From assembly GCA_027493375.1 (NCBI GenBank), contig JAPVWO010000240.1, forward strand, positions 175 to 64,174: a DNA stretch of 64,000 nt, given 5' to 3'. The position numbers and the translations under genes were made by a program. The DNA comes from Candidatus Multivorans thiocomprendens (GTDB lineage Bacteria > Acidobacteriota > Thermoanaerobaculia > Multivoradales > Multivoraceae). This document shows positions 3,240 through 34,633 of the stretch, one piece after another. Every line of letters starts with the position of its first letter. The stretch's first letter is position 1. The notes under the pieces are model-generated. The model had not been told where the DNA came from and searched no databases. It worked only from the letters and a program-made list of their open reading frames with translations.

Positions 3240-3356
3240 GGCGGAACAGTAGCGGAGGATCCGAGCTCCAGACGTCGATTGGCGGCGGAGGGGCCGGCGC
3301 ACCCGGTGGGCATCCGGTTCCTGCGCGCTGGCGCTGCGCCTGTACGGCACCGATCG

Positions 3357-4190: not shown

Positions 4191-4344
4191 GGATGAGACC
4201 TCCCGGGTCGTGAGCGTTGGCAGTGGGATGTACGCGGCGGGGCGGCCTGTGGTTTCAGTGCTCGCCGCCGAACCCGGGATCACCTCGGGGACCGCCGGCC
4301 GGCTTGGCCCCGGTCCGCTCCTGCGATACGGTGACCGCTTCCCA

Positions 4345-5916: not shown

Positions 5917-6024
5917 GCGGCCCGGGAGCCTGCGCCGCAGGCCCCTGGGCGAGGACGGGATGGGCCGAAACACCGAGGCCGCGAGGGGTTTCGGGGCGGT
6001 AGTATCCGCCGCCGGAGGAACGCC

Positions 6025-6615
6025 ATGCCGAGGATTGCAGAGGAAGCCATGGACGTCCTGTTCCGGGACGCCCGCAGCCAGAACCGGTGGCTGCCGCGTG
6101 AGGTGCCGGGGGAAACCCTGCAGGAACTCCACGACCTGATGAAGTGGGGACCGACGAGCGCGAACTGCTGGCCGCAGCGGGTCGTCTTCACGGTCACCGA
6201 AGAGGCCAAGGAGCGGCTGGCTTCGATCGCCATGCCCGGCAACCAGGACAAGATCCTGCAGGCGCCGGCGACCGCGATCCTGGGCTGCGACCTGGCCTTT
6301 TTCGAGAGGATGGACGTGCTCTTCGCCCACAATCCGGGCATGGCCGAGATGTTCCGGAACGACGCGGAACTCTCCGAAGTCACGGCGTTTCGCAACGCCA
6401 CCCTGCAGGGGGCCTACTTCATGCTGGCGGCGCGATCGCTCGGCCTCGACTGCGGTCCGATGTCGGGGTTCGACAGCGCGAAGTGCGATGAGCTGTTCTT
6501 CCCCGGCACGACGGTGCGCTCGAACTTCCTCTGCTCGATCGGTTACGGCGATCCCGAAGGCCTGTTCGGACGCTTGCCGCGGCCGGAGTTCGAGGACGTG
6601 TGCCGCGTGGAGTAG
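6025..6615 (+). CDS. nitroreductase-family protein (RutE/YdjA-like, putative malonic semialdehyde reductase type)
   Basis: Length of 196 aa and sequence (RSQNRWLPREVPGETLQELHDLMKWGPTSANCWPQRVVF ... LGLDCGPMSGFD) match the small nitroreductase fold. GGAGGA lies 6-7 nt upstream of the ATG. Confidence 0.8.
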   Translation: MPRIAEEAMDVLFRDARSQNRWLPREVPGETLQELHDLMKWGPTSANCWPQRVVFTVTEEAKERLASIAMPGNQDKILQAPATAILGCDLAFFERMDVLFAHNPGMAEMFRNDAELSEVTAFRNATLQGAYFMLAARSLGLDCGPMSGFDSAKCDELFFPGTTVRSNFLCSIGYGDPEGLFGRLPRPEFEDVCRVE

Positions 6616-6619
6616 CTGA

Positions 6620-8062
6620 TCAGCGGCGCCAGAAGGCGGGCAGGAGAAGCGCGGTCACGGCCACGATCTCCAGGCGGCCGAGCCACATCAGGACGATCAG
6701 CAGCAGCTTCTCCCAGCCGGCGAAGAAGGCGTAGTCGAGTGACGGACCGGCGGCGCCCATCGCCGGGCCGACGTTCGACAGGCAGGCGAGGGAAGACGAC
6801 AGCGAGGTCACCATGTCGTTGCCCGCGAGGGCGAGGATGGCGGCGACTCCCAGCCACAGGAAGGCGAAGAGGGTCATGAAGCCGCCCAGGCTGCGCGCCA
6901 CCTGGTCGCTGATCGTCCTTTTGCCGATCCAGAGCGCCAGAACCCGGCGTGGGTTGAACATGAGATGGACCTCGCGCAGCGCCATCTTCAGCGTCATGAC
7001 GAGCCGGCCGACCTTGATGCCTCCCGCGGTCGAACCGGCGCAGCCGCCGACGAACATGGCGAGCAGCAGCAGGGTGCGCGACGTGTCGCTCCAGGAGTCG
7101 TAGTCCCTGGTCGTGTAGCCGGTCGTCGTCATCAGGGACACGGAGTTGAACGCGGCCTCCCGGAGGGCCTCCAGCAGCGGCAGATCCGTGCCGCGCCAAC
7201 GGTCCAGGGTGACCAGCGCCACGAGCACGGCGGCGATCGAGGCGTAGGCGCGAAACTCGACGTCCTTGTAGAGCTGGCTGGGCCGCGATCGGACCGCGAA
7301 GATCAGGGAGAAGTTGATGCCCGCGATCAGCATGAAAACGATGATCGTCCACTCGATCAACGCGGAGTCGAAGGCGGCGACGCTCGCGTTGTAGGGGGCG
7401 AAGCCGCCGATCGACACCGTCGTGAAGGCGTAGCAGAAGGCCTCGTACTGGGTGGCGCCGCCGGCGAGCAGCAGCAGGATGAGGACGATGGTCAGGCCGA
7501 CGTAGATGCGCCACAGCACGGTCGCCGTCTTCTGCACCTGGGGCTGGAACATGTCCTGGGTGGGCCCCGGCACCTCCAGGCGGTAGAGCAGGCGGGCGCC
7601 CGGGCCCAGGCTGGGGAAGAGGGCGACGAACAGGAGCAGGATCCCCATGCCGCCCAGCCACTGCGTGAGGCCGCGCCAGAGCAGGATGCTGGGACTCACC
7701 AGCTCGATGTCGGTCAGGATCGAGGCGCCCGTCGTCGTGAATCCGGAGGCGGACTCGAAGAGGGCGGAGGCCGGATCCGCGATCTCGCCGCTCAGCAGGT
7801 AGGGGAGAGCGCCGAAGAAGGAGGCCAGGATGTAGGCGCCGACCACCACCAGGGTCGCTTCGCGCCGGTAGATCTTCTCGTGCGGCTTGCCCCACCAGTG
7901 GGCGGCCGCACCGGCGAGAGCAGAGACGATCAGCGACCCTCCGAGTGCCGCCGCGGGCCGGTCTTCGCCGTGCCAGATAGCGAACAGGAAGGGGATCAAC
8001 TGCGCCCCGGCCAGCAGCAGGAGGAGCCGCCCGACCAGACCGGAGACGGCGCGCAGGTTCAT
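6620..8062 (-). CDS. trkH: TrkH-family potassium uptake protein
   Basis: 480 aa and polytopic. It has repeated pore-loop signatures SGFTTTGAS, MTTTGYTT and GGCAGSTAGGIKV. Confidence 0.85.
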   Translation of the reverse strand: MNLRAVSGLVGRLLLLLAGAQLIPFLFAIWHGEDRPAAALGGSLIVSALAGAAAHWWGKPHEKIYRREATLVVVGAYILASFFGALPYLLSGEIADPASALFESASGFTTTGASILTDIELVSPSILLWRGLTQWLGGMGILLLFVALFPSLGPGARLLYRLEVPGPTQDMFQPQVQKTATVLWRIYVGLTIVLILLLLAGGATQYEAFCYAFTTVSIGGFAPYNASVAAFDSALIEWTIIVFMLIAGINFSLIFAVRSRPSQLYKDVEFRAYASIAAVLVALVTLDRWRGTDLPLLEALREAAFNSVSLMTTTGYTTRDYDSWSDTSRTLLLLAMFVGGCAGSTAGGIKVGRLVMTLKMALREVHLMFNPRRVLALWIGKRTISDQVARSLGGFMTLFAFLWLGVAAILALAGNDMVTSLSSSLACLSNVGPAMGAAGPSLDYAFFAGWEKLLLIVLMWLGRLEIVAVTALLLPAFWRR

Positions 8063-12714: not shown

Positions 12715-13995
12715 ATGAACCTCTTTACCCTGCTCTCGAAGCGTTTCGAGACGGCCCTCGATCATCCCGGCCTGGTGCCAGTTGGCGTTACCGAAGGCGC
12801 GAGCGGGCCGGCGTGGACGTACCGCGACCTGGACGAGGCTTCGGCCCGATGCTCGGCTGCGCTGCGCGAGCGCGGCGTCGAGCCCGGGGATCGGGTACTG
12901 GTTCAGATCCCGAAGTCGGTCGAGGCTGTCGCGCTGTACCTTGGGGTTCTACGCCGTGGCGCGGTCTACGTGCCATTGAATACGGCCTACACCGAGAGGG
13001 AGGTCGCGTTCTTCGTCGACGACGCGTCGCCGCGCGTCGTCGTCGGGGCCGAGGCCGCCGGACGGCAAGCGGTGGGTATCGACGCGCTGTGGGAGGAGGC
13101 GCGGTCGGTCGATCCCGATCCGGCGGTCGAACCCCGCGACGACGAGGACCTGGCCGCCATCTGCTACACGTCGGGCACCACCGGGCGCTCCAAGGGAGCG
13201 ATGATCACCCACGCGACGGTGCTGATGGGTGTGCCCACGTTCTATTCGCGATTGCTCGCCGAGCCGGGTTTCGGCAGTGCCGACTGCGAGAGCATCCGGC
13301 TGTTCGTTTCCGGGTCGGCGCCCCTGACGGAAGCCGTCTTCGGTGACTTCGAGGCCCGCACCGGTCACCGGATCCTGGAACGCTACGGCATGACGGAGGC
13401 GGGGATGATCACCTCGAACCCGCTCTCCGGGGAGCGGTTGGCCGGCACGGTCGGCTTTCCGCTTCCGGATGTCGAAGTGCGGGCCGTGGGTGAGGACGGC
13501 AGCGAAGTGGCAGCCGGTGAAGTCGGCACGCTGGAGACTCGCGGCCCAAATCTGTTCCCGGGCTACTGGGGCCTGCCGGAGAAGACGGCCGAGGAGATGC
13601 GCGACGACGGCTTCTTCGTCACCGGCGACCTCGCGAGCGTCGACGGCGAGGGCCGGGTGACCCTGGTCGGCCGAGGCAAGGACCTGATCATCGCCGGCGG
13701 CTTCAACGTCTACCCGAAGGAAGTCGAGGACCGGCTCGATGAGGTAGCGGGAGTAGCGGAATCGGCGGTGATCGGCGCGCCGCACACCGACCTGGGCGAG
13801 GGCGTGGTCGCCGTGCTGGTCGCCGAAGCCGAGCCCGTGGAAGACGATACGCTCCGCTCCGCGCTCGATGCGGGGCTCGCGCGCTACAAGCACCCGCGCC
13901 GCTTCTGCTGGGTCGACGAACTGCCGCGCAACGCGATGGGGAAGGTACGGAAAAACGTGCTGCGCGAGCGGTACCGCGACGCGTACAACCGATGA
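12715..13995 (+). CDS. MatB-like malonyl-CoA/acyl-CoA synthetase (ANL superfamily) with an apparent in-frame internal deletion
   Basis: ANL core motifs are present: YTSGTTGRSKG, YGMTE, GDL, GRGKDLIIAGGFNVYPKEVE, PRNAMGKVRKNVLRE. It is only 426 aa, and AMITH is followed directly by ATVLMGVPTFY (junction 13212/13213). Confidence 0.75.
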   Translation: MNLFTLLSKRFETALDHPGLVPVGVTEGASGPAWTYRDLDEASARCSAALRERGVEPGDRVLVQIPKSVEAVALYLGVLRRGAVYVPLNTAYTEREVAFFVDDASPRVVVGAEAAGRQAVGIDALWEEARSVDPDPAVEPRDDEDLAAICYTSGTTGRSKGAMITHATVLMGVPTFYSRLLAEPGFGSADCESIRLFVSGSAPLTEAVFGDFEARTGHRILERYGMTEAGMITSNPLSGERLAGTVGFPLPDVEVRAVGEDGSEVAAGEVGTLETRGPNLFPGYWGLPEKTAEEMRDDGFFVTGDLASVDGEGRVTLVGRGKDLIIAGGFNVYPKEVEDRLDEVAGVAESAVIGAPHTDLGEGVVAVLVAEAEPVEDDTLRSALDAGLARYKHPRRFCWVDELPRNAMGKVRKNVLRERYRDAYNR

Positions 13996-21305: not shown

Positions 21306-21494
21306 TCAGAGGTGCAGCCGGATGACCCTGGGAGCGTCCTCCCCGTCGAAGTGGCAGAGCACGGCGTCCCGGACCATCTCCTTCAGGTCCTCCCAGTCGT
21401 CGCCTTGCGTGAAGATGCTGTAGCCGAGCGCCTTGGCGTCGTAGCCACCATCAACCGCCTCGGTTACTTCAAAGATGATCTCGGTTGGCCTCAT
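21306..21494 (-). CDS. HicB-like (UPF0150-fold) small antitoxin-type protein
   Basis: 62 aa: IIFEVTEAVDGGYDAKALGYSIFTQGDDWEDLKEMVRDAVLCHFDGEDAPRVIRLHL matches the small HicB-like family often found next to a HicA toxin. GGAGA lies 9 nt upstream of the ATG. Confidence 0.6.
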   Translation of the reverse strand: MRPTEIIFEVTEAVDGGYDAKALGYSIFTQGDDWEDLKEMVRDAVLCHFDGEDAPRVIRLHL

Positions 21495-24700: not shown

Positions 24701-24745
24701 GCAGATGAGGCGCTCGAGGCCGCGTTCGGTCGTGTCGGTGGTCAC
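21704..24745 (-). CDS. hsdR: type I restriction endonuclease subunit R
   Basis: 1013 aa. Helicase motifs are present: HSAGSGKSYSIAW (Walker A), VIDEAHSSQ (DEAH-type), FAFTATP, QTGYDEP, QTLSRLNR. The N-terminal nuclease region has ...ALDLALFINGLPVITFELK. Confidence 0.95.
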   Translation of the reverse strand: MTTDTTERGLERLICTALTGHPCDPAKPGEVPHPTEPSPASVGWTAGDPRDYDRNHCVDLAQLSAFLRATQPDAADGLALDEDGPARRKFLARLQGEIAKRGTVDVLRKGLGHGAHELELFYGTPSEGNEVAQQRFGLNRFTVTRQLRYSGDRAQLALDLALFINGLPVITFELKNSLTKQTVSDAIEQYRKDRNPREKLFEFGRCIVHFAADEREVRFCTHLRGKASWFLPFNRGWNDGAGNPPNPDGLAADYLWREILTRESLTEIIENYAQIIESKDDKTGRTKKTQIWPRYHQLDVVRRLLADAAEYGAGRRYLTQHSAGSGKSYSIAWLAHRLIGLKRRGGSPAVQSRSGGGTVFDSIVVVTDRVILDRQIRDTIKQYAQVAATVGHADSSADLRQFLEGGKKIVITTIQKFPHVLDAIGDDQRGRRFAIVIDEAHSSQGGRTSAAVSGALSEAGARAEEETYEDRINRLMESRKLLPNASYFAFTATPKNKTLELFGVPERQPDGAVKRRAFHTYSMKQAIEEGFILDVLKHYTPVRSYYRLAKSVEDDPEFDVKKAQRKLRRFVEGHDHAIRLKAEIMVDHFHDQVAAPRRIGGEARAMVVTNGVQRAIQYFHSMRDCLEARKSPYRAIVAFSGEHEYGGAKVTEASLNGFPSRQIATKIQEHPYRLLVCADKFQTGYDEPLLHTMYVDKTLAGIKAVQTLSRLNRAHPGKHDVFVLDFLNDTEIVRDSFANYYRGTILADETDPDRLHDLQADLDAAQVCSAERIDLFVERYLDGAERDRLDPILDQCVAVYLSELDEDGQVDFKGKAKAFVRAYGFLSSILPFSNAGWEKRSIFLNFLIPKLPAPREEDLARGILDAVDMDSYRAEKQAIRKILLPDEDAEVDPTPPAGGGYRPESDLDHLSNIIKAFNDHFGGVEWADEDRVQRMIAFDIPARVASDTAFRNARRNSDRENTRIEHDRALLRVMQNVMKDDTELFKQFMDDDGFKRWMSEAVFRRAYDQAEAP

Positions 24746-24987
24746 GTCTCGCCCGAGGGCTCGGCGGGCGGCGGGCCTTCCTTCTCCGCGGCCGCCTTGG
24801 CTTCGGCTCGGGCCCGGTCGCGGTCGTAGAGGGCTTCCCGCGGGAGACGGTCGGAGGCGCTGAAGCCCGGGCTGGTCCTGCGGATGTCCTCGATCACTTC
24901 GCGGAGCTTGCGTGCACGCCGTTCCCGCTCCGTTTCGGTCGACGAATCGCCAGAGGACCGGTCGGTCCGTGCTCGCTCAGCCGCCAC
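24742..24987 (-). CDS. small ORF resembling only the C-terminal tail of the HicB-like antitoxin at 26617..27147
   Basis: The GTG at 24987 is in frame and overlaps the upstream stop by 11 nt. The product ends ...ETERERRARKLREVIEDIRRTSPGFSASDRLPREALYDRDRARAEAKAAAEKEG.... This parallels ...ETPLERRRRLLHKVTRDFKRRGIGLDMAENLPRSELYDRDRARAEAAG of the other protein. Its stop overlaps the hsdR ATG (ATGA). The start is uncertain. Confidence 0.35.
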   Translation of the reverse strand: MAAERARTDRSSGDSSTETERERRARKLREVIEDIRRTSPGFSASDRLPREALYDRDRARAEAKAAAEKEGPPPAEPSGET

Positions 24988-26113
24988 GCCCTGCCGCCTC
25001 GCGGCGCTTCCCCAGCATGTTCTGGTACACGCTGTCAGAAGTCGCCTTGACGTCCTCGGTGATGTCCAGCAGCGACTCGTCCTGGCCGTCGTAGGCCCGG
25101 AGAGAACCTGCTGCGTCGCGGATGGCGCTGCGCGCTTGCAGAAGGGACACAAGGAAGCGCCGGTCCATTGGTTCGGTGGCCGCGTGCGCTTGACGCAGGG
25201 CGTATCCCGCTGCCAGCAGTTCCCGTGCTTCGGCGTGCGGAAGGACTTCTCCGAGCTGCTTGATGTCGGGATTCACCGTGCGGACCGCAGGCGGTACGTT
25301 GCCTTCCGTCGAGCCGTAGATCCAGAGGAGCACGTCTCGAAGGCAGTCCAGCTTCTCGGCGGGGACGGGGTCGGGTCGCGGTTCGTCCGGCGGCCAGGGT
25401 TGCGCCAGCCCGAGGTGCTCCAGGTACTGCGAATGCGAAAGGGCGACGTACAGATGGGCGAAGCTGAACTTCGGCGTGTAGCGGTCCTCGATGTCGAACA
25501 GGTCCTCCCTGACTGCCTGCTCCAGCACGTAGACCGCAGACACCATCCGCTTGATCGTGCCGTGGCCGTCGCCGAGCGCGCTGGCGATCCGGTCGATGCC
25601 GACTTCCCCTTCCCGGTACCAGTCCGCCGCGAACCGTGCCTTGGCGTAGGCGCTCCACTTGGCGGCGCCGTTGATGTGCTTGAAGCCGATGAAGGGCCGT
25701 GTCCCCTCGCGGCTTGCTACCTGGTAGACCGTCACGTGTTCGAACGTCGGGCGGACGGCGTCCGTGAACTCAGGAATCGTGATCGTGATCTGCTTCAAGG
25801 AAGCGATCCTGCGCACCAAGTCCGGCTCGCGCAGAAGGCGAAGCGTTGCGAGGCGTCGGTTCCCTTCGAGGACGACCAGGGCGTCGCCTTCTGGCGCCGC
25901 CACCGCGACAAGCGGCTCGATGTCTAGGTAGCCGTTGGTCGAGATCGAGTGCAGGAGCTCGCCGAGTTGCGCCGAGCTGTGCAGCTGCGCGATGATCGCC
26001 TCTTCGGTGGCACCCGTGGTTGAGTCGACAAGCCGTGGGTTGTGGCGGTCGAGGCGGAGTTGCTCGACGGGCACCTTTCGGGTCGTCCCGACTTCTGACT
26101 GCACGTCGTCCAT
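24977..26113 (-). CDS. ParB/Srx N-terminal-domain protein with an uncharacterised C-terminal region
   Basis: 378 aa. The N-terminus VPVEQLRLDRHNPRL...LGELLHSISTNGYLDIEPLVAV...ALVVLEGNRRLATLRLL has the ParB/sulfiredoxin-fold layout, with (E/G)xRR-type box EGNRR. I recognise nothing in the remaining ~270 aa. Confidence 0.7.
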   Translation of the reverse strand: MDDVQSEVGTTRKVPVEQLRLDRHNPRLVDSTTGATEEAIIAQLHSSAQLGELLHSISTNGYLDIEPLVAVAAPEGDALVVLEGNRRLATLRLLREPDLVRRIASLKQITITIPEFTDAVRPTFEHVTVYQVASREGTRPFIGFKHINGAAKWSAYAKARFAADWYREGEVGIDRIASALGDGHGTIKRMVSAVYVLEQAVREDLFDIEDRYTPKFSFAHLYVALSHSQYLEHLGLAQPWPPDEPRPDPVPAEKLDCLRDVLLWIYGSTEGNVPPAVRTVNPDIKQLGEVLPHAEARELLAAGYALRQAHAATEPMDRRFLVSLLQARSAIRDAAGSLRAYDGQDESLLDITEDVKATSDSVYQNMLGKRREAAGRGG

Positions 26114-26188
26114 GACGGGGGCTATCTTAGACGGAGGGCAGCTACACTCGGTTGCTGGCTCACGCAGAGTCGCCGTGCCGGCCCGCCG

Positions 26189-26617
26189 TCACGACGAAGG
26201 CGGCTCGGCGAACGGATTGACCACCCGCACGCCGTCGTAGTCTTGGTGGTGGCTCAGATCTTCAGAGTAGACCTCCGGGCAGTTGCAGGCGCGTGCTGCG
26301 GCGAGGATCGCGCCACCCCAGTACGCGACGCCATAGCGACGACTGAGTCTCACAGCGTCCCGGAAGATGCCGACGGTCATCGGTTGCACGCGAAACTCCA
26401 GGATCGGTTCGAGAAACGCCAGGGCCTCCGTAGGAGACAGGCGCGACTTGCGGGTTGGTCGCGTGGCTTGATGGTAGAACTCCTGCAGGACCTGGACGGA
26501 CACGACGAGACCGCTCTCGGTCAGAGTGCGGATCGCCGCGTCACGCTTCCTTGCCTCCGCGGGACTGCTGGCGGCAGCGTAAAGGAGGATGTTCGTGTCG
26601 ACGAAGCGGTCCGGCAT
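26189..26617 (-). CDS. PIN-domain toxin (VapC-like ribonuclease)
   Basis: 142 aa. It has the PIN acidic quartet context (RFVDTNILLYAA ... VQVLQEF ... YWGGAILAAA ... VYSEDL). The ATG overlaps the upstream stop (TGATG). Confidence 0.85.
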   Translation of the reverse strand: MPDRFVDTNILLYAAASSPAEARKRDAAIRTLTESGLVVSVQVLQEFYHQATRPTRKSRLSPTEALAFLEPILEFRVQPMTVGIFRDAVRLSRRYGVAYWGGAILAAARACNCPEVYSEDLSHHQDYDGVRVVNPFAEPPSS

Positions 26618-27147
26618 CAGGCGGACGTGGCGCCTTCGTTGGGACTGTCGGTCCCGGCGGCTTCGGCTCGTGCCCGGTCGCGGTCGTACAACTCCGAGCG
26701 CGGAAGGTTCTCGGCCATATCGAGTCCGATCCCCCGTCGTTTGAAGTCCCTTGTCACCTTATGCAGAAGCCGCCGCCGCCGCTCGAGCGGCGTCTCACCG
26801 GAGTGGCTGCCCGGGGACTTCGCGGCCGGTGTTCCGAGGCGGTTCCTCACCGGCACCCTCTCCCATCCGGAACTGTCGAGCGTTGACGCCGAGTCCGCTC
26901 TGTCCGCCGACGTGACGGGGAATGCGCTGATCACGCCGTTCTTCCTGACAACGTCGTCGAGAGAGCCGGTCTCGGCGCAGCGCTTGAAGAAGCCAGCGAG
27001 CGCCTTCCAGAGCATCGCTCGCGCCTCGGTCTCCGTAACGCCGGACCCTTCAACCTCCAATCCTGGACATTCGGCGAGCCAGGAGTTTCCTTCCCGGTGT
27101 ACTTCCGTCCGGACCGTCACGACCCCCTCAAAGCCGGCGGGAATCAT
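26617..27147 (-). CDS. antitoxin-like protein: HicB-fold N-terminus plus a basic tail ending in the ELYDRDRARAEA motif
   Basis: I chose the ATG at 27147 because it forms an ATGA overlap with the stop of the upstream 566-aa gene. The N-terminus VVTVRTEVHREGNSWLAECPGLEVEGSGVTETEARAMLWKALAGFF is HicB/UPF0150-like. It lies directly upstream of the PIN gene. Confidence 0.6.
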   Translation of the reverse strand: MIPAGFEGVVTVRTEVHREGNSWLAECPGLEVEGSGVTETEARAMLWKALAGFFKRCAETGSLDDVVRKNGVISAFPVTSADRADSASTLDSSGWERVPVRNRLGTPAAKSPGSHSGETPLERRRRLLHKVTRDFKRRGIGLDMAENLPRSELYDRDRARAEAAGTDSPNEGATSA

Positions 27148-28844
27148 CGCGTCTCTCCAGACAGCAGACGCCATCGGACCCCTCCGGTGGCCTGGACTCT
27201 CTCGACGGGGCCGCCTTCACGCATGTGCTTTGTCAGTTGGTGGGACACGACGCGCGCGGGGTTCTTCGAGTTCGTCCTCCACCCGCCGCCGACGATGGCG
27301 TCGGTGATCTCCTTCAAAGTTCTGGCGCCCTCCGCGCGGCGCAGGTACCTCAATGACGCCTCAAGCGGCGACAGCTCGGCATAGATCGGATACGGCAACG
27401 CGTGCCAACGTTGCTCCGCCTCGTCGAGTTCCCATTGAATCGTTCTGTTGTACTTGGCAACCGATCTCCAGTCGACACCCAGGTAGTCAAGCACTCTCAG
27501 CGTGAGAATGGCCTTGGCCTTTCTCAGCACTTTCGACAAGGAGAGGATGTCGTCGTCCAACGCGACGCCACCGTGGCTCCAGGGATGACGTACGCCAAGC
27601 AGCTTCGTGGAGACTTGGCACTTCCCGTTCGAGGACGGCGTCGAGACCTCTCGCTCAATCGGGTCGAACATGCGCCGGACCCTCTCACCCGTGGATCGTC
27701 CGTTCAGTATGGCTCTGATGGTTCCCGAGTAGACGCTGCCCCAGCCATGCTCCTCGAGAACTTGGTGGATCGTCTCCTGTGCCGTTGTCGGGAGCGGCTC
27801 GTAGGGGTTGTCGGCTTCTTCCAGAATCTGGCTGTACCACAGTTCTCCGGCGCCGCAGGCGGACACGATCCGGGTGTCGAGAAACGTGCTGGTGTCCATC
27901 AAGCTGTCCAGACGAAGGAGAGTGCCTTGCGCGGCGCGGGGAATCTCCAACCACCTGCGCAGCACCGCGGCGGGGTCGCCGACGACGCCCGCCTCCTTCG
28001 GGTCCGCCGTGAATAGCGCGTCGTACTGGACTTGGCTGGGGCGGTACGGTCGTTCGCTGCCTCGTCGCATTCCCTGCGTCACGACCTCGACGCTCTGGCC
28101 GTTCACCTCGACCATGAGTTGCCGGATCGCGCACGAGCGATCGAGGGAGAACCGAAGGAACAGATGAGCGTGGTGAACACCGTACCTTGCCTGGTCCCAC
28201 GGGGCTTCTCGATCCAGGTGCAACACCGCGTAGCCGGACTCCGCGACTTCATAGGCGTTGCCCTTCTCCGTGCTGAACCCCGCCAGAAGGCCCATCGTCA
28301 TTTGCGCGCTTCCCAATCCGTCGAGATCGGCCGCGGTGGTCACCGAGACCGAGGGTGGACGGAAGCTCTCGTAGCTGGAAGGGCCGGGGCCACCGGGATT
28401 CAGCCAGCCTTCGATGCCTTCGGCAACCCAACTGATCCGGCTGCACAGGAGTTCCTGGTCCGGTGCCAGGGCCACTCCTATGTAGGCGCTGTTGACGGTA
28501 AACACGACTTGTCGTGGCTGCTGCAGCACGCCGACCGTCAGGAGGTGGCAGTCGTCGAGTGTGACCTCGGCGTCCGTGACAGTTCGGCCGGAGACGGTCT
28601 TGCCGGAGACAACGCCGCTCAGGCGGCCGTGAGCCCCGTTGAGGTACCACGGGAGCGGCACGCTTGGAAGTGGCATGTCCAGGGCTTCGCCAGGGGAGCG
28701 GTAGTTCTGGTCCTGATTGATGACCTCAAGCTGCATTTCGCCGCTGGGTTCCATCGTCAGTCTGCCGGGGAGTTTCTCCGTGTCCTCGCCGGGGGGCCAG
28801 AACCAGCCGAGGAGTTCTTGAGACTTGGTGCCGGTGCGTGACAT
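27144..28844 (-). CDS. ApeA-like HEPN-domain protein with a C-terminal winged-helix (HARE-HTH-like) extension
   Basis: 566 aa. The N-terminus ELLGWFWPPGEDTEKLPGRLTMEPSGEMQLEV resembles the ApeA N-terminal domain pattern (G.FWLP....(G)xL....G...L). There are Rx4H candidates VRHPWSHGG (C-terminal half) and ARYGVHH. The tail RAEGARTLKEITDAIVGGGWRTNSKNPARVVSHQLTKHMREGGPVERV...VRWRL looks like a HARE-HTH. Codon usage is visibly AT-richer than the surrounding window. Confidence 0.55.
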   Translation of the reverse strand: MSRTGTKSQELLGWFWPPGEDTEKLPGRLTMEPSGEMQLEVINQDQNYRSPGEALDMPLPSVPLPWYLNGAHGRLSGVVSGKTVSGRTVTDAEVTLDDCHLLTVGVLQQPRQVVFTVNSAYIGVALAPDQELLCSRISWVAEGIEGWLNPGGPGPSSYESFRPPSVSVTTAADLDGLGSAQMTMGLLAGFSTEKGNAYEVAESGYAVLHLDREAPWDQARYGVHHAHLFLRFSLDRSCAIRQLMVEVNGQSVEVVTQGMRRGSERPYRPSQVQYDALFTADPKEAGVVGDPAAVLRRWLEIPRAAQGTLLRLDSLMDTSTFLDTRIVSACGAGELWYSQILEEADNPYEPLPTTAQETIHQVLEEHGWGSVYSGTIRAILNGRSTGERVRRMFDPIEREVSTPSSNGKCQVSTKLLGVRHPWSHGGVALDDDILSLSKVLRKAKAILTLRVLDYLGVDWRSVAKYNRTIQWELDEAEQRWHALPYPIYAELSPLEASLRYLRRAEGARTLKEITDAIVGGGWRTNSKNPARVVSHQLTKHMREGGPVERVQATGGVRWRLLSGETR

Positions 28845-29142: not shown

Positions 29143-30552
29143 TCACCGCTCCGGCAGCGTCGTCGTCGCTTCGCGCACGTCGAGCTTTCCGGTAACCACA
29201 TCGGCAATCAGGCGTTCGCGCCACTCCCGAAGAACGGCGGCCTGTCGGCGGGCACGGGCGGTGGCTGCGGTCGTCGTGGTCGTGACGTGGTGAACGAAAC
29301 GTGAGATGGCGGTCTGCTCGGCCTCGGGAGGGATGGCTATCGGTAGATCTCGCCAGCGCTCGGTTGGAAGCCTGCGAGTCCCGTGCCCTGCTTCGTCGAT
29401 CAGGGGAAAGAGGCCGTCATGAGCGCAATCGAGCAACGACGCCATGTAGGTTGCGTTGAGCGCCGCGCGGGGTCGCAGGGCCTTCATGTCCTGGTTGATC
29501 GTCACCGGTGCCGTCGTCCTGGCGATGGGCACTCTGCGGGCGAGGATCATCCCGCGGACCACCATGAGCACGGCGGGAGGTTGTATCAACCGAAGTGGGG
29601 TTTCGGCGAGCGCGGCCTCCGTGACCCGCAGGCGCGAATCGTGGATCACCATCGTCTTCATGTCCTTCGGAGTGACCCATGGAACATCGCCGTTCCAGAA
29701 GCGACGGTCTTCCATTCTGGGCGTCATTCCTCCCGAGATGGAGGCGCATTGCCGGATCTTCCTCACCTTCCAATGGGCCGGCTTGTGGCCCAACCACTCC
29801 GCGCCGGAGTCCTTGTAGGCCGGATAGGGCCGGCCGGTGCGCACATCGATCCGGCCGGTTACGGCCTGATCAATGACGGCCTGCTTCTGCTCCTCCAGCG
29901 TCGCGATCAGCTTCTCCTTGGCTCGGATGTACCGCCGGATGCGCCGGTCGAGGTAGTCGAGGAACCGAACGATTGCAGTCTGTTCTTCCGGCGGGGGAAT
30001 CGCGACAGGTACTGCCGACAACCTCGTTTCGGCGATTGCCGGGTATGCGACGCCCACCGACTGGGCCATGACACAGTCGGTGAAGGGCTGGCTGCGGCAC
30101 AGATGGCCGACGAAGGCGGGCTCGGTTTGCGCTCGGGGGGTAAGGACTGCAAAACCGGTTGAGGCGACAAGGTCGGTTCCTCTCGCCGCCACGTGCCAGA
30201 CTGCCTTCAGGTACGTTCTCACGGTGGAGACGATGGTGTCTCCGTTACGAAGGACACGCCTCGCTCTCGACGGAGAAGCGCCGAACCTCATGCGTACCGG
30301 TTCGCGAACCAGGACTCCTGTCTGGACTGCGCCAATGTCGATGTAGTGGAACTCGTAGTCGGGGTCGGTGTCCTCCGGGAGAACGGTCTGGTTCACCCGG
30401 AGCCAGTCCTTGATGCGCCGCACCTCCCAGTGCGCAGGCACATCCCCGAGCCACTCCACGCCGGAGGCCCTGGTCTCCACGTATGCGGGCAGATTTGGGA
30501 CGTTTGGGACCGTCGCCGCGTCGCCTTCAAGAAGCGGACCCGGTTGCATCAC
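29143..30552 (-). CDS. hsdS: type I restriction-modification specificity subunit S
   Basis: 469 aa. It has two target-recognition halves, each introduced by (G)xEWLG(D/H)(V/K)PAHW(E/K)VR(R/K)I. They are separated and terminated by the conserved helices IPPPEEQTAIVRFLDYLDRRIRRYI and IPPEAEQTAISRFV. Confidence 0.9.
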   Translation of the reverse strand: MMQPGPLLEGDAATVPNVPNLPAYVETRASGVEWLGDVPAHWEVRRIKDWLRVNQTVLPEDTDPDYEFHYIDIGAVQTGVLVREPVRMRFGASPSRARRVLRNGDTIVSTVRTYLKAVWHVAARGTDLVASTGFAVLTPRAQTEPAFVGHLCRSQPFTDCVMAQSVGVAYPAIAETRLSAVPVAIPPPEEQTAIVRFLDYLDRRIRRYIRAKEKLIATLEEQKQAVIDQAVTGRIDVRTGRPYPAYKDSGAEWLGHKPAHWKVRKIRQCASISGGMTPRMEDRRFWNGDVPWVTPKDMKTMVIHDSRLRVTEAALAETPLRLIQPPAVLMVVRGMILARRVPIARTTAPVTINQDMKALRPRAALNATYMASLLDCAHDGLFPLIDEAGHGTRRLPTERWRDLPIAIPPEAEQTAISRFVHHVTTTTTAATARARRQAAVLREWRERLIADVVTGKLDVREATTTLPER

Positions 30553-30798
30553 TACGCCGTCGCCGAGAGTCCGGGCGGTTGAAGTGGCGCGGTGTGGCGG
30601 GCTGCCACTCGCGACCGGCTCACGAGATCGCCCCCTTTCGTCGCGCCGGCTGGCCCAGCATCGCTACCCCTCCTGCGGCGCGTTACCCGAACGCGGGCCG
30701 CGAGTCCCGTTCCGCGTAGGGAGGGCGGGTCGACTTGCAACCGCGCACTTCCGCCGTGAGTCTCCCGCTGCAGCAGCCACGCTTGGCCGTTCAAGTTC

Positions 30799-31503
30799 CT
30801 ACGTTCCGGGGTCCGGAGGCGAGACGCCGAACTCGCTCGGCTTGACCTTGCGCGAACGCTCCCACACACGGCGGAGGATGGGGTCCGTGATCTCCAGGTT
30901 GTTCAGCCAGTCCACCCGCTCCTCGGGAGTCATGGCGTTCAGTTTCCGACTGATCCGGTCCCTCTGCTCGCGCTGGAAGGCGACGCAGTCGAAGCTCTTG
31001 TCGTTCGGGTCGCGAAAGTTCTCGCCCAGGATGGCCGGGGGCACGTACATCTCGACCCGGGGATGACCGAGTTCCCGGTTGACGGCGTTGAACCTGGGCC
31101 TGCGGTAGAAGTTCAGTAGGTGCTTGTGGTTCCAGTTCGCAAGCGTGTCGACGTTTGCGAGCGTGGCGAAGGCGACGTGCAGGCCGACGGAGCGCACGGC
31201 CGCGTCCACCGTGCCCGCCTCGACGTAACGGTCGGCGAGTTCCTCGGCTGCTGCCGACGGTTCCAGGAACTCCGAGTGCTCTTGCGGCACCGTGCCCGGC
31301 AGGCCTCTCGCGGCCTCGGTCGCCGCGTCCAACTCGCCCGCGACCGCACCCGACAGGACGAGGGTCATGTCGCCGGCACGGAACCGTTCGAGCAGCTCCC
31401 GGGACGACTCCCTGATCCAGTACCTCGCGTCCTCGCAGGCGGAGAACACGGAGGTGTCCACGTACACGCGGTACGGCCGTCGCTCGGACGAAGCGGAGGA
31501 CAT
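30799..31503 (-). CDS. PIN-like domain fused to a small helical antitoxin-like C-terminal domain
   Basis: 234 aa. The PIN-like part reads RVYVDTSVFSACED...GLHVAFATLANVDTLANWNHKHLLNFYRRPRFNAVNRELGHPRVEMYVPP. It runs without a stop into KSFDCVAFQREQRDRISRKLNAMTPEERVDWLN, a module that elsewhere occurs as a separate small protein (recalled from memory, not searched). Confidence 0.7.
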   Translation of the reverse strand: MSSASSERRPYRVYVDTSVFSACEDARYWIRESSRELLERFRAGDMTLVLSGAVAGELDAATEAARGLPGTVPQEHSEFLEPSAAAEELADRYVEAGTVDAAVRSVGLHVAFATLANVDTLANWNHKHLLNFYRRPRFNAVNRELGHPRVEMYVPPAILGENFRDPNDKSFDCVAFQREQRDRISRKLNAMTPEERVDWLNNLEITDPILRRVWERSRKVKPSEFGVSPPDPGT

Positions 31504-31589
31504 GGGTGTGGCGACTCTCAGCGCCTACAGGTTGTCGCTTCGCGCTGAGGCGCCCTCCGGCTCGGCCGGAGCGACGTGAGTGCCGTCGG

Positions 31590-32014
31590 TCATGCCGAGT
31601 GGCGGCGACCCTGGGAGAGTTGGTCCCGTGCGCTGGCATCGCGAGCCCGCAGGCGCTCGACCAAACGCCGTAGCTTCGGGTCTGTCGGCAGGTAGCTGCG
31701 CATCCAGGCGCCGATTTCCTCGCCGGACATGTTCTCGAACTTCTTCCCGAGCTTCTTCCGTTGGGCGCGCTGAAAGGCGACGCAGTCGAAGCTCTTTCCT
31801 CGGGCACGGTGTCGAGCACTTCCCTGACCCGCTTCGGGGCGTCGTTCAGTTCGTCTATCGTGAAGGGCGAGATCACGAGGCTCAATTCGCCTCGCCGGAA
31901 GCGCTCGAAGAGTCGCCGAGACGGCTCCCGAAACTCGTCCTCCTCGCAGCCGCCGAAGACGGAGGTGTCGACGTACACGCGGCGTGTCCTAGCCTCGGGC
32001 CGACCGGGCGCCAT
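31590..32014 (-). pseudogene. disrupted paralogue of the 30799..31503 PIN-plus-small-domain gene
   Basis: The ATG at 32014 gives MAPGRPEARTRRVYVDTSVFGGCEEDEFREPSRRLFERFRRGELSLVISPFTIDELNDAPKRVREVLDTVPEE. At about 31796-31798 homology jumps to another frame: KSFDCVAFQRAQRKKLGKKFENMSGEEIGAWMRSYLPTDPKLRRLVERL...*, with stop at 31590-31592. The second half of the PIN domain is absent. The block cgctg(a/g)aaggcgacgcagtcgaagctctt is shared with the intact copy. Confidence 0.55.
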
Positions 32015-33901
32015 GCCGCCCATGATCTCGGCCAGCAGGCCCTCGGTCTGCGTCTCCAGCGCCAGGATGTCGGCCTGGATCTCCGCCAGGGGCCGCATCG
32101 GTTCGGGCTTGTAGAAGTAGCGGTTGAAGCTGATCTCGTAGCCGGTCTTCACGGTCTCGGGGTTGTACCACGCGTCGGGTGCCCAGGGCAGGACCTCGCG
32201 CCGCAGGAAGGCCTCGATGCCGCCGTCCTCCTGGAGCGGGATCTGCTCGGTATCCCGCAGACTCGTGTCCGGCTCGTACTCGACGACGGCCGTCCGGCCG
32301 TCGACCTTCGCCTCGAACAGGCCGCGCAGCGGGTCGGCGGCGACTCCCCGCTGGTGGACCTTCCGGATCACCGGCGGCGCCTCGTCGGCGCGGACGCCGG
32401 AGGCCTTGAGTTCGCGGATCTCGGCAGCCTTGTAAGCGCGGCCTCCGTCGATTCCCTCGATGCGTAGCGGCCGCTCGACGGTGACCTTCCAGTAGCCGAA
32501 GGCTTCGTTGTCGAAGACCTTGCTCTCTTCGGTCTCCTCGAAGGCGAGGAAGACGTCGCAGATGCGGCCGATGTCCTCCGCGCCGAGTTCGCAGTTCTTC
32601 TTGCCGAGGTTCTTGCGGAGCGGCTGGAACCGCTTCGTGGCGTCGATGAGCTGCACCCTGCCCTGGCGATGCTCCGGCTTCCGGTTCGTCAGCACCCAGA
32701 CGTAGGTGGCGATGCCGGTGTTGTAGAACATGTTGAGCGGCAGAGCGACGACGGCCTCCAGCCAGTCGTTCTCGATGATCCAGCGGCGGATGTTGCTCTC
32801 GCCCTGGCCCGCGTCGCCGGTGAACAGGGAACTGCCGTTGTGGACCTCGGCGACCCGGCTGCCGAGCGGCGTGCTCCGCTTCATCTTGGCGAGCTTGTTG
32901 GCCAGGAACAGCATCTGGCCGTCGCTGCTGCGGGTGACGAGGGAGTACTCCGGGTCGCCGCCGTGCTCGATCAGGAAGCGCGGGTCGCGCATGTCCTTCT
33001 TGCCGCCCATGCGGGCGAGATCCGTCTTCCAGCTCTTGCCGTAGGGCGGGTTGGAGAGCATGAAGTCGAACTCGCGGGCCGGGAAGGCGTCGTTCGAGAG
33101 CGTGGAGTGCTCCGGTCCGCCGACGATGTTGTCGGCCGCTTGGCCCTCGCCCTTGAGCAACAGGTCGGCCTTGCAGATGGCGTAGGTCTCGGCGTTGATC
33201 TCCTGGCCGAAGAGGTGCGTGGAGACCTCCTTGCCGCGCTCGGCGGCGAGTCCCTGGAGCACGTCTTCGGCCACCGTGAGGATGCCGCCGGTGCCGCAGG
33301 CGCCGTCGTAGAGGGTGTAGGTGGCGGACCGGAGCCGGTCGGCCACGGGCAGGAAGACGAGGTTCGCCATCAGCTTGACCGCGTCGCGCGGAGTGAAGTG
33401 TTCGCCGGCCTCCTCGTTGTTCTCCTCGTTGAAGCGGCGGATCAGCTCCTCGAAGATCGAGCCCATGCCGTGGTTGTCGAGGCCTGGGTGCTTCACGGCG
33501 CCGTCGCCGTTCATCATCGGTTTGGGCCCCAGGTTGATGTCGGGCGAGGTGAGCTTCTCGATCAGCGTGCCGAGTGCGTCGGCCCTTGAGAGCCGCGGGA
33601 TCTGATTGCGGAACTCGAAGTTGTCGAGGATGTCCTGGACGTTCGGAGAGAAGCCGTCGAGCCAGGCCTCGAAGTCGGCCCGGAGCCGCTGCCGGCCGGC
33701 GCGGGCGCGCAGGTCGCGCAAGGTGTAGTTCACCTGCATGACGTGCTGCTTGCGCGGTTCCAGTACCGCGTCGAGCCGTCGCAGCAGGGTCATCGGCAGG
33801 ATGACGTCGCGGTACTTCCCGCGGACGTAGAGGTCGCGGAGCACGTCGTCGGCGATGCCCCAGATGTAGCCCGCGACCCAGTTCAGGGAGGCATTGTCCA
33901 C
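32015..33901 (-). CDS. hsdM: type I restriction-modification methyltransferase subunit M (no stop codon of its own)
   Basis: GTG at 33901 lies 1 nt after the vapC stop. The HsdM N-domain reads NWVAGYIWGIADDVLRDLYVRGKYRDVILPMTLLRRLDAVLEP. It has EHFTPRD, motif I YDGACGTGG and motif IV FMLSNPPYG. The C-terminus is ...ADILALETQTEGLLAEIMGG, after which the frame continues straight into the ATG of the PIN remnant. Confidence 0.9.
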
Positions 33902-33902
33902 C

Positions 33903-34340
33903 TCAGGTTTCCCACTCGGCCGGCGCCGCCTCAAGCCCGAGGGCGGCGGCGTTCGAGCGAATGCGACGGTCGAAGGTGAGGACCCGCAACTCCGTCCGGA
34001 ACTCGCGGACCCGGAGCGCGGTGGCCAGATGCAGTGCATCCAGGGTGCGGAGCGGTTCCCTTGGGAAGGGTTGTCGCGCGCGGTCCACGATGACGGCGCT
34101 GATCCGGAACACGCTCCACGAAGCCGTCGCTGCTTCGAGACGCGCGCGCGCCGCTTCAGAGCGCCGGGCGTTCAGGCGGCCGGCCGCTTTCGCTTGGTGG
34201 ATGCCGCGTTCGCACTCGAGGATCGTCAACTCCGAGGCGAAGATTGCAGTCGCGGAGTCAAGGAGACGGAGCGCTTCCTCCCCGGACGGTTCTCCAAACA
34301 ACCAGGAAAGGACCGCGCTGGTCTCGGCGTAGAGCGTCAC
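33903..34340 (-). CDS. vapC: PIN-domain toxin VapC
   Basis: 145 aa. It has a PIN layout (TLYAETSAVLSWL ... ASELTILE ... TLDALHLATAL ... VLTFDRR). The GTG start overlaps the Phd stop (GTGA). Confidence 0.85.
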   Translation of the reverse strand: MTLYAETSAVLSWLFGEPSGEEALRLLDSATAIFASELTILECERGIHQAKAAGRLNARRSEAARARLEAATASWSVFRISAVIVDRARQPFPREPLRTLDALHLATALRVREFRTELRVLTFDRRIRSNAAALGLEAAPAEWET

Positions 34341-34633
34341 CTCTCGCCGCGAACCGCGTCCAGGAGCGCCATCACTTCATCGTCCGGCCACCTCTCCTCC
34401 TTGGGCGGGCGCGTGTAGACCGCCGCCGAGTTCGGTCGCTTGGCTAGACGGACTTCCCCCGCCCGCGCCAGACGCAACAGTGCGTCGTCCGGGTCCAGGC
34501 CGTGCGGCGCGTGAGGCACCAGGTCGGCGACCGGTGCGCCGCGGCTGGTGACGGTGACCCGCTCGCCGGACTGGGCCATGCGCACGTATTCGCTGAGGCG
34601 GTTCTTCAATACGCGGATGCCGACGGTCGTCAT
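34337..34633 (-). CDS. Phd/YefM-type antitoxin
   Basis: 98 aa. MTTVGIRVLKNRLSEYVRMAQSGERVTVTSRGAPVADLVP is a canonical Phd/YefM N-terminus. It is the first gene of the minus-strand string leading into hsdM. Confidence 0.85.
   Translation of the reverse strand: MTTVGIRVLKNRLSEYVRMAQSGERVTVTSRGAPVADLVPHAPHGLDPDDALLRLARAGEVRLAKRPNSAAVYTRPPKEERWPDDEVMALLDAVRGER

Follow-up and report, generated by a model that had tools for sequence, protein, structure and literature searches.

A gene for a ParB-like protein lies between hsdS and hsdR of a type I restriction–modification (R-M) operon in the 64,000-nt stretch of Candidatus Multivorans thiocomprendens DNA analysed here (contig JAPVWO010000240.1 of assembly GCA_027493375.1, positions 175 to 64,174; hereafter, the window), and a small open reading frame (ORF) separates it from hsdR. 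We propose, with moderate confidence in the reading as a whole, that this gene is the solo survivor of a module composed of the ParB-like gene, a gene that we call B and a DNA methyltransferase gene, housed in a cargo slot of the type I operon, and that the small ORF encodes an antitoxin tail. The pairing of the ParB-like gene with hsdR is positional and is not a dedicated system. A scan of 185,579 species, one genome each, found 492 stretches that encode a relative of the protein; our locus counts refer to the 80 best of these, all 51–85% identical to the window protein, and individual loci are denoted by L numbers. The initial annotation of this DNA saw a ParB gene chained to the R subunit, a claim that the family does not bear out: only about ten of the 80 loci lie near this hsdR, all close relatives in one clade, and the family’s constant partners, B and the methyltransferase, are missing here. 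Co-occurrence of homologues with hsdR was also checked: of 76 genes located downstream of where the cassette sits, just 4 had HSDR_N.

A ParB-fold family and its partner genes

Structural modeling confirms that the ParB-like protein, whose ORF contains VPVEQLRLDRHNPRL and ALVVLEGNRRLATLRLL, consists of an N-terminal nucleoside triphosphate (NTP)-binding ParB/sulfiredoxin (Srx) domain, a helix-turn-helix (HTH) domain and a family-specific helical C-terminal domain. An AlphaFold2 model built from an alignment of 53 sequences, divergent fragments included, reached a pLDDT of 86.9 and a pTM of 0.74. With this model, Foldseek returned 14 PDB matches at E <= 1e-3, all to ParB, Noc or pNOB8-ParB chains and all spanning the N-domain and the HTH (E from 1.3e-5, for the best match 7ol9_B, to 9e-4; probabilities 0.99–1.0). 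Sulfiredoxin and SerK stood lower in the list and matched the N-domain only, and a library of viral structures yielded ParB/Spo0J, GmrSD_N and DndB-like proteins. An earlier model from 16 close homologues had given an N-domain pLDDT below 50 and ParB matches that were all non-significant. PADLOC profiles for PD-Lambda-5_A match residues 10–165 (E 2e-21), and Pfam ParB_N gives weak matches in 20 of the 53 family members. We assign the ParB/Srx fold because these structural, PADLOC and family-wide Pfam results agree, despite the silence of Pfam on the window protein (no match at E <= 0.1). For that protein, an NCBIfam search gave nothing usable and a profile search against PDB sequences found nothing. 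The ParB/sulfiredoxin-type N-domain that the initial annotation recognized in a 378-amino-acid (aa) protein is thus upheld by AlphaFold2 with Foldseek and by PADLOC.

The same annotation described a C-terminal region of about 270 aa that could not be placed, and part of this region now has an assignment. Residues ~155–215 form a ParB-type HTH, with helices in the model at residues 155–168, 173–179 and 186–202, a weak TIGR00180 match at residues 152–212 (20.7 bits against a cut-off of 58.45) and HTH_38 matches in 8 of the 53 family members. Residues ~216–378, by contrast, still have no structural or sequence match by Foldseek or by profile search against PDB sequences. The model is confident here (pLDDT >=90 for residues 220–310), the domain ends in two long helices, and it may mediate dimerization or partner binding.

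Within the N-domain, residues 21–28 (LDRHNPRL) resemble Box I of ParB proteins and residues 81–89 (VLEGNRRLA; nucleotides 25847–25873) resemble Box II. An hhalign alignment sets these segments in register with Box I and Box II (GERRxRA) of what we take to be the Spo0J sequence, a correspondence that we use as a lead only. D22, R27, E83, G84, N85, R86 and R87 are invariant in the 53 aligned sequences. Across the ParB/Srx fold, mutation of the Box II arginines abolishes NTP binding (PMC12704722).

Homologues of this protein fall into at least 1719 clusters at 90% identity, about 375 aa long, and into 2348 clusters at 50% identity (E <= 1e-3), mostly of 360–400 aa. Among the top 120 homologues listed, identity to the window protein is 57–85% (the window’s own cluster apart), and nearly all cover 90–100% of the query. 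The 80 best loci come from Acidobacteriota, Latescibacterota, Proteobacteria, Nitrospirales, Cyanobacteria, Gemmatimonadota and others. Family members share the motifs LDxxNPRL, NGYLDIEPL, VLEGNRRLA and FIGFKHINGxxKW, and the window protein is similar to them over its full length. Judged from these sequences and their distribution, the ParB-like gene is a mobile, strongly constrained one.

The gene rarely stands alone. In 69 of the 80 loci it is directly followed by the conserved gene B (~330 aa), the stop of one overlapping the start of the other, and in 51 of the 80 an N6_N4 DNA methyltransferase gene (362–376 aa) comes next after B, again with overlapping stops and starts. Elsewhere the third position holds a Dam-type methyltransferase gene or a complete PD-Lambda-5 pair (A, E 1e-164; B, E 4e-117). 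Overall, a DNA methyltransferase of the N4/N6 or Dam type is present in at least 58 of the 80 loci, and three loci carry the complete PD-lambda-5 pair. This gene order suggests that the family unit is a cassette of the ParB-like gene, B and an interchangeable DNA methyltransferase gene, in a restriction–modification-like layout. For B itself, searches of Pfam, NCBIfam, PADLOC and PDB sequences gave no match, and no nuclease or other domain was detectable. A PD-(D/E)xK/Mrr-like reading of its DDQxDVFA...Q motif was a by-eye impression backed by no tool, and we set it aside. We found no description of the ParB-like/B/methyltransferase cassette in the literature, a search of incomplete coverage that leaves room for an earlier description.

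A version of the cassette also occurs in the P2-like coliphage vB_EcoM-12474III (L085; NC_049457.1, record positions 5009–8045), where genes for a 372-aa ParB-like protein, a 330-aa hypothetical protein and a C5 methyltransferase adjoin the portal gene, the location of the P2 prophage defense hotspot. The phage ParB-like protein is a full-length, remote homologue of the family (hhalign probability 99.8%, E 3e-28, 325 columns). B and the 330-aa phage protein align colinearly at a probability of 41% (E 2.8e-4), which is suggestive only. Related ParB-like proteins are also found in Yersinia phages HQ103 and L-413C, in Wphi and in a record named Peduovirus P2.

Genes flanking the cassette are mixed, with other methyltransferases, UvrD-type helicases, transposases, ArdA and SIR2 as well as housekeeping genes. 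The defense-associated setting proposed by the initial annotation is borne out in that the gene family stands in an R-M-like context. Several variants of the arrangement were also observed. In L057 (2088–6642), L063 and L073, genes for the ParB-like protein, B, PD-Lambda-5_A (467 aa) and the Dam-type methyltransferase PD-Lambda-5_B form a four-gene cluster in which one methyltransferase is common to two paralogous ParB-fold proteins. A protein of ~950 aa with an N6_N4-type methyltransferase domain, ending in GDEVMKVFRV, is encoded near the ParB-like gene in 27 of the 80 loci (L012, L020, L028, L035, L064, L074 and others), directly upstream in about nine; where it is present, the cassette may belong to a larger R-M-like island. 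In L012 (11549–14019) the ParB-like gene lacks B and the methyltransferase gene and is followed by a HEC-01 A/B pair (AAA_21 plus DUF4276); L015 is similar. B and the methyltransferase gene are likewise missing outside the type I clade in L025, where a transposase gene comes next, and in L038 and L060, where a UvrD/GajB-like helicase gene does. Across the whole family, solo states arose more than once.

Solo copies in the hsdS–hsdR slot

In the window, the ParB-like gene lies co-oriented between hsdS and hsdR, a position that places it among type I-embedded cargo or R-linked ORFs; neither B nor a methyltransferase gene follows it, and the small ORF and then hsdR come instead. All ten solo copies known from such loci have the same disposition, just upstream of hsdR and co-oriented with it, with at most a small toxin–antitoxin (TA) gene set or tail ORF between. 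The related loci that have this hsdR are syntenic with the window, with genes for an SDF transporter, DJ-1/PfpI or Sod_Cu, and DUF3604 proteins after hsdR. The cargo between hsdS and hsdR varies, and includes VapBC pairs, an ApeA-like protein, a Qat-like set, DarT–DarG and a macro-domain protein; the same slot also holds either a full ParB cassette or a solo ParB-like gene. One side observation concerns L089, in which a Qat-like set (KAP NTPase, 274-aa protein, QueC-like protein and TatD DNase; 1203–5975) precedes the solo gene.

In a neighbor-joining tree, the window protein and those of L001, L002, L011, L081 and L083 form a single solo clade, whose sister consists of full cassettes inside type I loci (L003, L004, L013 and L051); the solos of L089–L092 were found later and are outside the tree. 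Because the solos form one clade that is sister to type I-embedded cassettes, B and the methyltransferase gene appear to have been lost once, inside the slot. Cargo in the slot also seems to be exchanged by recombination, as the window hsdR is 95% identical to that of L087 over its first 300 codons whereas the ParB-like proteins of the two loci are only ~68% identical.

Eight of the ten solos are intact and two are disrupted. Within the solo clade, pairwise ratios of non-synonymous to synonymous substitution (dN/dS) are 0.25–0.34 at dS values of 0.3–0.76, compared with 0.12–0.22 for pairs of cassette-linked genes. Of 116 alignment columns conserved in >=95% of cassette-linked proteins, 93 are unchanged in all six solos checked, GNRR included. 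Solo-specific changes occur at L173, T223 and Q280, and five of the six also differ at E357; the last three of these sites are in the C-domain. Together, these patterns suggest that the solo gene is probably functional in most of the genomes that carry it, but dispensable.

The solo gene also shares a candidate regulatory element with its cassette-linked relatives. The AT-rich 13-nt motif GTCTAAGATAGCC occurs once in the window, ahead of the ParB-like start codon, and recurs exactly, at the same distance to the ATG, in 11 related loci with solo genes or full cassettes, despite differing upstream genes; other clades of the family lack it. It may be the −10 element of a near-leaderless transcript or an operator. 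A promoter and terminator scan found nothing, and is uninformative for a high-GC organism other than E. coli.

The small ORF and the surrounding locus

The small ORF (Table 1) has no ATG in its frame; the maximal ORF, of 136 aa, starts from a TTG inside the ParB-like gene. It overlaps the ParB-like stop by 11 nt and hsdR by 4 nt. The initial annotation had correctly noted the overlap of its stop with the hsdR start but gave the junction as ATGA; the junction is GTGA, and hsdR starts with GTG. The encoded peptide consists of a basic helix plus LPREALYDRDRARAEA and AKAAAEKEGPPPAEPSGET, and it matches the C-terminus of the neighboring antitoxin with 52% identity over 54 aa (E 3e-14), as expected from the earlier description of a basic helix joined to the tail of the antitoxin of the adjacent PIN gene. 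In the window, the ORF is chimeric, with its first ~20 codons derived from the ParB junction. No ribbon-helix-helix, AbrB or HicB-like domain was found in it, and the upstream part of the frame is an alternative frame of the ParB-like gene.

Homologues of the small ORF are 55–117 aa long, and several carry two tandem tail modules. In every case, the final module (...EVIEDIRRTSPGFSASDRLPREALYDRDRARAEAKAAAEKEG..PAE...) terminates in a TGA that overlaps the hsdR GTG, and the same GTGA overlap is present in L003, L004 and L087–L090. This terminal module is seen with full cassettes (L087 and L088) and with solos behind other cargo (L089 and L090, and L091 with DarTG). A complete ribbon-helix-helix antitoxin gene occupies the small-ORF position in L002, and in L011, L051, L081 and L083 a full antitoxin gene of this type is followed by a PIN gene and then hsdR. 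The tail module seems to have been shuffled between differing antitoxin-type N-domains. In solo locus L001 the tail ORF is entirely absent, leaving a plain 40-nt spacer with no coupling. The frame is intact in seven of seven loci compared, with dN/dS of 0.32–0.75 against 0.14–0.43 for hsdR, which suggests a weak but consistent constraint at the protein level. Two further loci bear on this position. In L003 a macro-domain protein is fused to this same tail directly before hsdR (13230–13899), and in L091 a DarT–DarG pair fills the cargo slot (4811–6536).

Like VapB antitoxins, the small ORF encodes a basic helix followed by an LPRxxLYDRDRARAE tail, which matches the neighboring antitoxin as well as the complete ribbon-helix-helix antitoxins encoded ahead of PIN genes in L011, L051, L081 and L083. 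It differs from VapB in lacking a DNA-binding domain, in being followed by hsdR, through the stop/start overlap, instead of a PIN gene, and in a conserved extra C-terminal extension, AKAAAEKEGxxPAExxG. By these comparisons, the small ORF is a tail-only derivative of a VapB-type antitoxin, linked to hsdR whatever the cargo. A role as partner of the ParB-like protein was considered and rejected, as the ORF is linked to hsdR under varied cargo, is absent from L001 and is replaced by a full antitoxin gene in L002. The closest toxin type for it is not in the window, where the only related PIN gene (26189–26617) has its own antitoxin. The GTGA overlap would provide translational coupling to hsdR, and the small ORF could serve as a coupling leader for hsdR or as a PIN-neutralizing peptide.

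Table 1 Features of the hsdM–hsdR region; coordinates are those of the whole window, and all listed genes are on the minus strand
Feature	Position	Strand	Basis or remark
hsdM	ORF 30791–34039	−	
PIN-like protein, 234 aa	30799–31503	−	
hsdS, upstream boundary of the cargo slot	29143–30552	−	hsdS homologues in related loci
566-aa protein with ApeA N-terminal domain	27144–28844	−	Pfam ApeA_NTD1, E 1.9e-10
185-aa antitoxin	26617–27174	−	Tail similar to the small ORF
VapC-type PIN toxin, 142 aa	26189–26617	−	Pfam PIN, E 2.8e-11
AT-rich motif GTCTAAGATAGCC	26120–26132	−	6 nt before the ParB-like ATG
ParB-like ORF, 378 aa, ATG start	24977–26113	−	Solo copy of the first gene of the cassette
N-terminal ParB/Srx NTP-binding domain (~residues 10–150)	25664–26086	−	Foldseek, PADLOC
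Central HTH, ParB-type DNA-binding domain (~residues 155–215)	25469–25651	−	Model, TIGR00180
All-helical family-specific C-terminal domain (~residues 216–378)	24980–25468	−	Model
Small ORF, 81 aa, GTG start	24742–24987	−	
GTGA overlap of small-ORF stop and hsdR GTG start	24742–24745	−	
hsdR, type I restriction subunit, 1013 aa	21704–24745	−	TIGR00348, E 3e-55; PADLOC REase_I
30-nt direct repeat	24799–24828 and 26659–26688	−	29 of 30 nt identical

The first copy of the 30-nt repeat falls within the small ORF and the second within the antitoxin gene, so that the pair flanks the PIN and ParB-like genes; the number of such repeats expected by chance is 0. Repeated antitoxin-tail sequences of this kind may act as recombination hooks for the exchange of cargo. 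The ApeA-domain protein, a defense-type cargo of the hsdS–hsdR slot, has a C-terminus that weakly matches HARE-HTH. Of the loci examined, only L011 has the gene at full length, and L090 retains a short fragment.

Further observations concern the rest of the locus. The stop codon of hsdM has been lost (31900–32020, minus strand). Relatives end in ...EIMGGMAPGPSKEVDDDR*, and in the window a ~40-nt deletion continues the hsdM reading frame into a PIN-like copy at ~31500–31990 that is degenerate, with an internal deletion and a frameshift, adding ~400 codons. The methylase of the type I system may have changed or be in decay. The 234-aa protein, whose gene sits between hsdM and hsdS, has a PIN-like N-terminus (RVYVDTSVF...) and no match in Pfam, NCBIfam or PADLOC; its gene is present in most related type I loci (L001–L004, L006, L011, L013, L051, L055, L090 and L091), often as tandem copies or fragments. 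ARAGORN called a 98-nt tRNA-Thr(CGT) at 26590–26687 on the plus strand, antisense to the antitoxin/PIN overlap; the length of this call and its location within coding sequence make a false positive probable. A 62-aa ORF right after hsdR (21306–21494, minus strand) has no significant family match; tblastn finds homologous stretches of 48–80% identity in L003, L006, L029 and L051, and a 62-aa gene also follows hsdR in L087. Upstream of hsdM, a second TA-like pair (33903–34633, minus strand), called by eye, encodes a 145-aa PIN/VapC-like and a 98-aa Phd/YefM-like protein.

Known systems, competing explanations and implications

The closest described relative is PD-lambda-5, which its authors read as a compact system for both R-M and abortive infection (Vassallo et al. 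2022, PMC9519451). Its N-terminal ParB/Srx domain is homologous to that of the window family, and in both cases a ParB-fold protein is paired with a DNA methyltransferase and is found in prophage or defense hotspots. Nevertheless, the PD-Lambda-5_A profiles span 450–500 positions, of which the window protein matches only ~4–160 (to ~215 in two profiles), about the first third, whereas a true PD-Lambda-5_A (467 aa) in L057 matches positions 1–461 with an E of 1e-164. The two families are paralogous, and that of the window protein has an HTH, a different C-domain and the extra partner B. In the window, moreover, no methyltransferase gene, whether PD-Lambda-5_B or another, stands beside the ParB-like gene in the hsdS–hsdR slot. 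Membership in PD-Lambda-5_A was rejected on the partial profile match and on the finding that true A and B genes adjoin members of the family.

The initial annotation also did not recognize the pairing with hsdR as a described system. A ParB/Srx-fold gene between hsdS and hsdR has, however, been described for RloF of Campylobacter jejuni and TgvAB of Vibrio cholerae (PMC4619093, PMC11411939), but these belong to another family, DUF262. The parallel extends to a ParB/Srx NTPase gene on the same strand as its hsdS and hsdR neighbors, with the type I operon offering a landing site to a separate restriction function. RloF and TgvAB, however, carry a DGQQR motif, have a partnered or fused DUF1524 His-Me nuclease and act as type IV enzymes, restricting modified DNA. 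The window protein carries EGNRR, does not match Pfam GmrSD_N and has no DUF1524 or HNH domain in itself or its neighbors. Because the ancestral module of the window gene carries its own methyltransferase gene, it would be R-M-like and not modification-dependent. Membership in GmrSD/DUF262 (RloF, TgvAB, BrxU, SspE) was rejected on motif and context.

With the canonical CTP clamps ParB, Noc and KorB, the window protein shares the fold of the N-domain, an HTH and equivalents of Box I (NPR) and Box II (GxRRxxA), and in the model its C-terminal helical region could likewise dimerize. In contrast to those proteins, its Box III is replaced by FIGFKHINGxxKW, the Glu of GERR is an Asn with the arginines kept, and its C-domain is unrelated. 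No ParA-like ORF lies beside the window gene; parS sites were not searched for. Other ParB-superfamily NTP-binding proteins are DndB, a regulator, and DpdB, an ATP-dependent helper of a modifying enzyme (PMC12839542, PMC12704722). By fold and context only, they offer a plausible functional analogy for a ParB-like protein beside a methyltransferase. The DndB motif is DGQHR, no dnd or dpd genes are nearby and there is no membership at the sequence level; assignment to DndB was rejected on motif and context.

In our preferred reading, a mobile three-gene module of ParB-like gene, B, possibly the effector, and methyltransferase gene would have entered the hsdS–hsdR slot in an Acidobacteriota lineage, and one later deletion would have removed B and the methyltransferase gene to leave the solo gene of the window. 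The solo protein would most likely remain an NTP-gated DNA binder acting through its HTH, non-lethal and restricting no DNA alone, and is probably retained as a DNA-binding or regulatory protein, harmless or of slight benefit, that is co-transcribed with hsdR and is not a type I subunit; NTP gating, binding to DNA and an effector role for B are features that we infer. The small ORF would supply a toxin-binding antitoxin tail, with neither a DNA-binding domain nor a PIN partner, translationally coupled to hsdR.

Several points weigh against this proposal. The dN/dS of the solos is about twice that of cassette-linked copies, so that constraint is relaxed about two-fold, and this weakening fits a slowly decaying remnant. 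N25 of the NPR motif is replaced in four of six solos, the L091 solo is frameshifted (5x assembly) and the L092 solo carries W264stop (16x assembly). Asn here replaces the Glu found in canonical GERR motifs, so that hydrolysis of NTP may not proceed as in ParB. Since B shows no detectable domain, gene order and the obligatory methyltransferase are the grounds for the term ‘R-M-like’. The small ORF is a predicted one with a GTG start, no clear Shine–Dalgarno sequence and only weak purifying selection, and the present function of the solo protein is itself a prediction.

Some of these points would be explained if the solo were a non-functional remnant of a degraded cassette in which lesions have yet to appear in the window genome, a possibility that we regard as unlikely. 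Beyond the raised dN/dS, the substitutions of N25 and the L091 and L092 lesions, it draws on the loss of B and the methyltransferase gene, on long branches and on decay elsewhere at the locus, where hsdM without its stop codon runs into a degenerate PIN-like copy. A remnant is nonetheless hard to reconcile with eight intact solos across the dS range of the clade at dN/dS values that still indicate constraint, with retention of GNRR and the 93 unchanged columns or with the conservation of GTCTAAGATAGCC; moreover, the two lesions were seen in long-read assemblies of low coverage and may be errors. Similarly doubtful, in our view, is that the solo protein has been co-opted to sense the state of DNA or NTP and to regulate or assist HsdR, through operon read-through or direct contact. 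The invariable placement of all ten solos immediately upstream of hsdR, the 11-nt and 4-nt overlaps that chain the three window ORFs and the purifying selection that continued after partner loss speak for co-option, and the shared substitutions T223, Q280 (six of six) and E357 (five of six) at otherwise invariant C-domain sites could mark a new interaction surface. This position, however, was inherited from full cassettes at the same place (L003, L004, L013, L087 and L088), the family as a whole has no link to hsdR, two solos are disrupted while hsdR is intact, and L001 has its uncoupled 40-nt spacer.

Less probable still is a self-sufficient single-gene defense or nuclease in which the ParB/Srx domain nicks DNA itself. 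Nuclease or NTPase activities have been reported in the ParB/Srx superfamily (PMC12839542, PMC4619093), and the gene is located among defense cargo, with an ApeA-like protein, VapBC and type I R-M genes. Yet 86% of the family keep B directly downstream, and most also a methyltransferase gene, which argues that the ParB-like protein alone is not the effector; no nuclease domain beyond the ParB fold is present, and a nuclease acting on unmodified DNA would be self-toxic in the absence of a methyltransferase. A housekeeping partition or nucleoid protein of the ParB/Noc type, which the best structural matches, HTH included, would favor, is effectively refuted by context. Neither the window nor those related loci that were examined showed a parA next to the gene. 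Scores for Pfam ParB_N and TIGR00180 remain below threshold, and the constant neighbors are B and the methyltransferase gene. Proteins with more than 50% identity are spread across many phyla yet found in only 492 stretches, the pattern of a mobile gene.

A more ambitious, joint reading, which we offer as a long shot, would make the cassette a new R-M system in which a ParB-type clamp gated by NTP (possibly CTP) replaces the helicase/translocase as the subunit for DNA sensing and communication. In the solo clade, this clamp would have persisted after the loss of its effector and found new use beside a type I enzyme, and the tail-only antitoxin would tie control of a PIN toxin to hsdR expression, a back-up logic like that of PrrC.

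For the window itself, the outcome is an orphan gene and an antitoxin fragment, and not a new ParB–HsdR system; the main interest lies in the intact cassette found elsewhere. More broadly, the analysis brings out a large, highly conserved and unannotated ParB-fold family, present in many phyla and in P2-like coliphages and tied to a 330-aa protein B and interchangeable methyltransferases. The type I R-M operon emerges as a recombination-driven cargo slot in which components can be reduced to orphans. Should the cassette prove to be a working defense, R-M-like immunity would gain a ParB-type nucleotide switch among its mechanisms, and the version of the cassette in an E. coli phage would then give the ParB-CTPase field a tractable case outside segregation.

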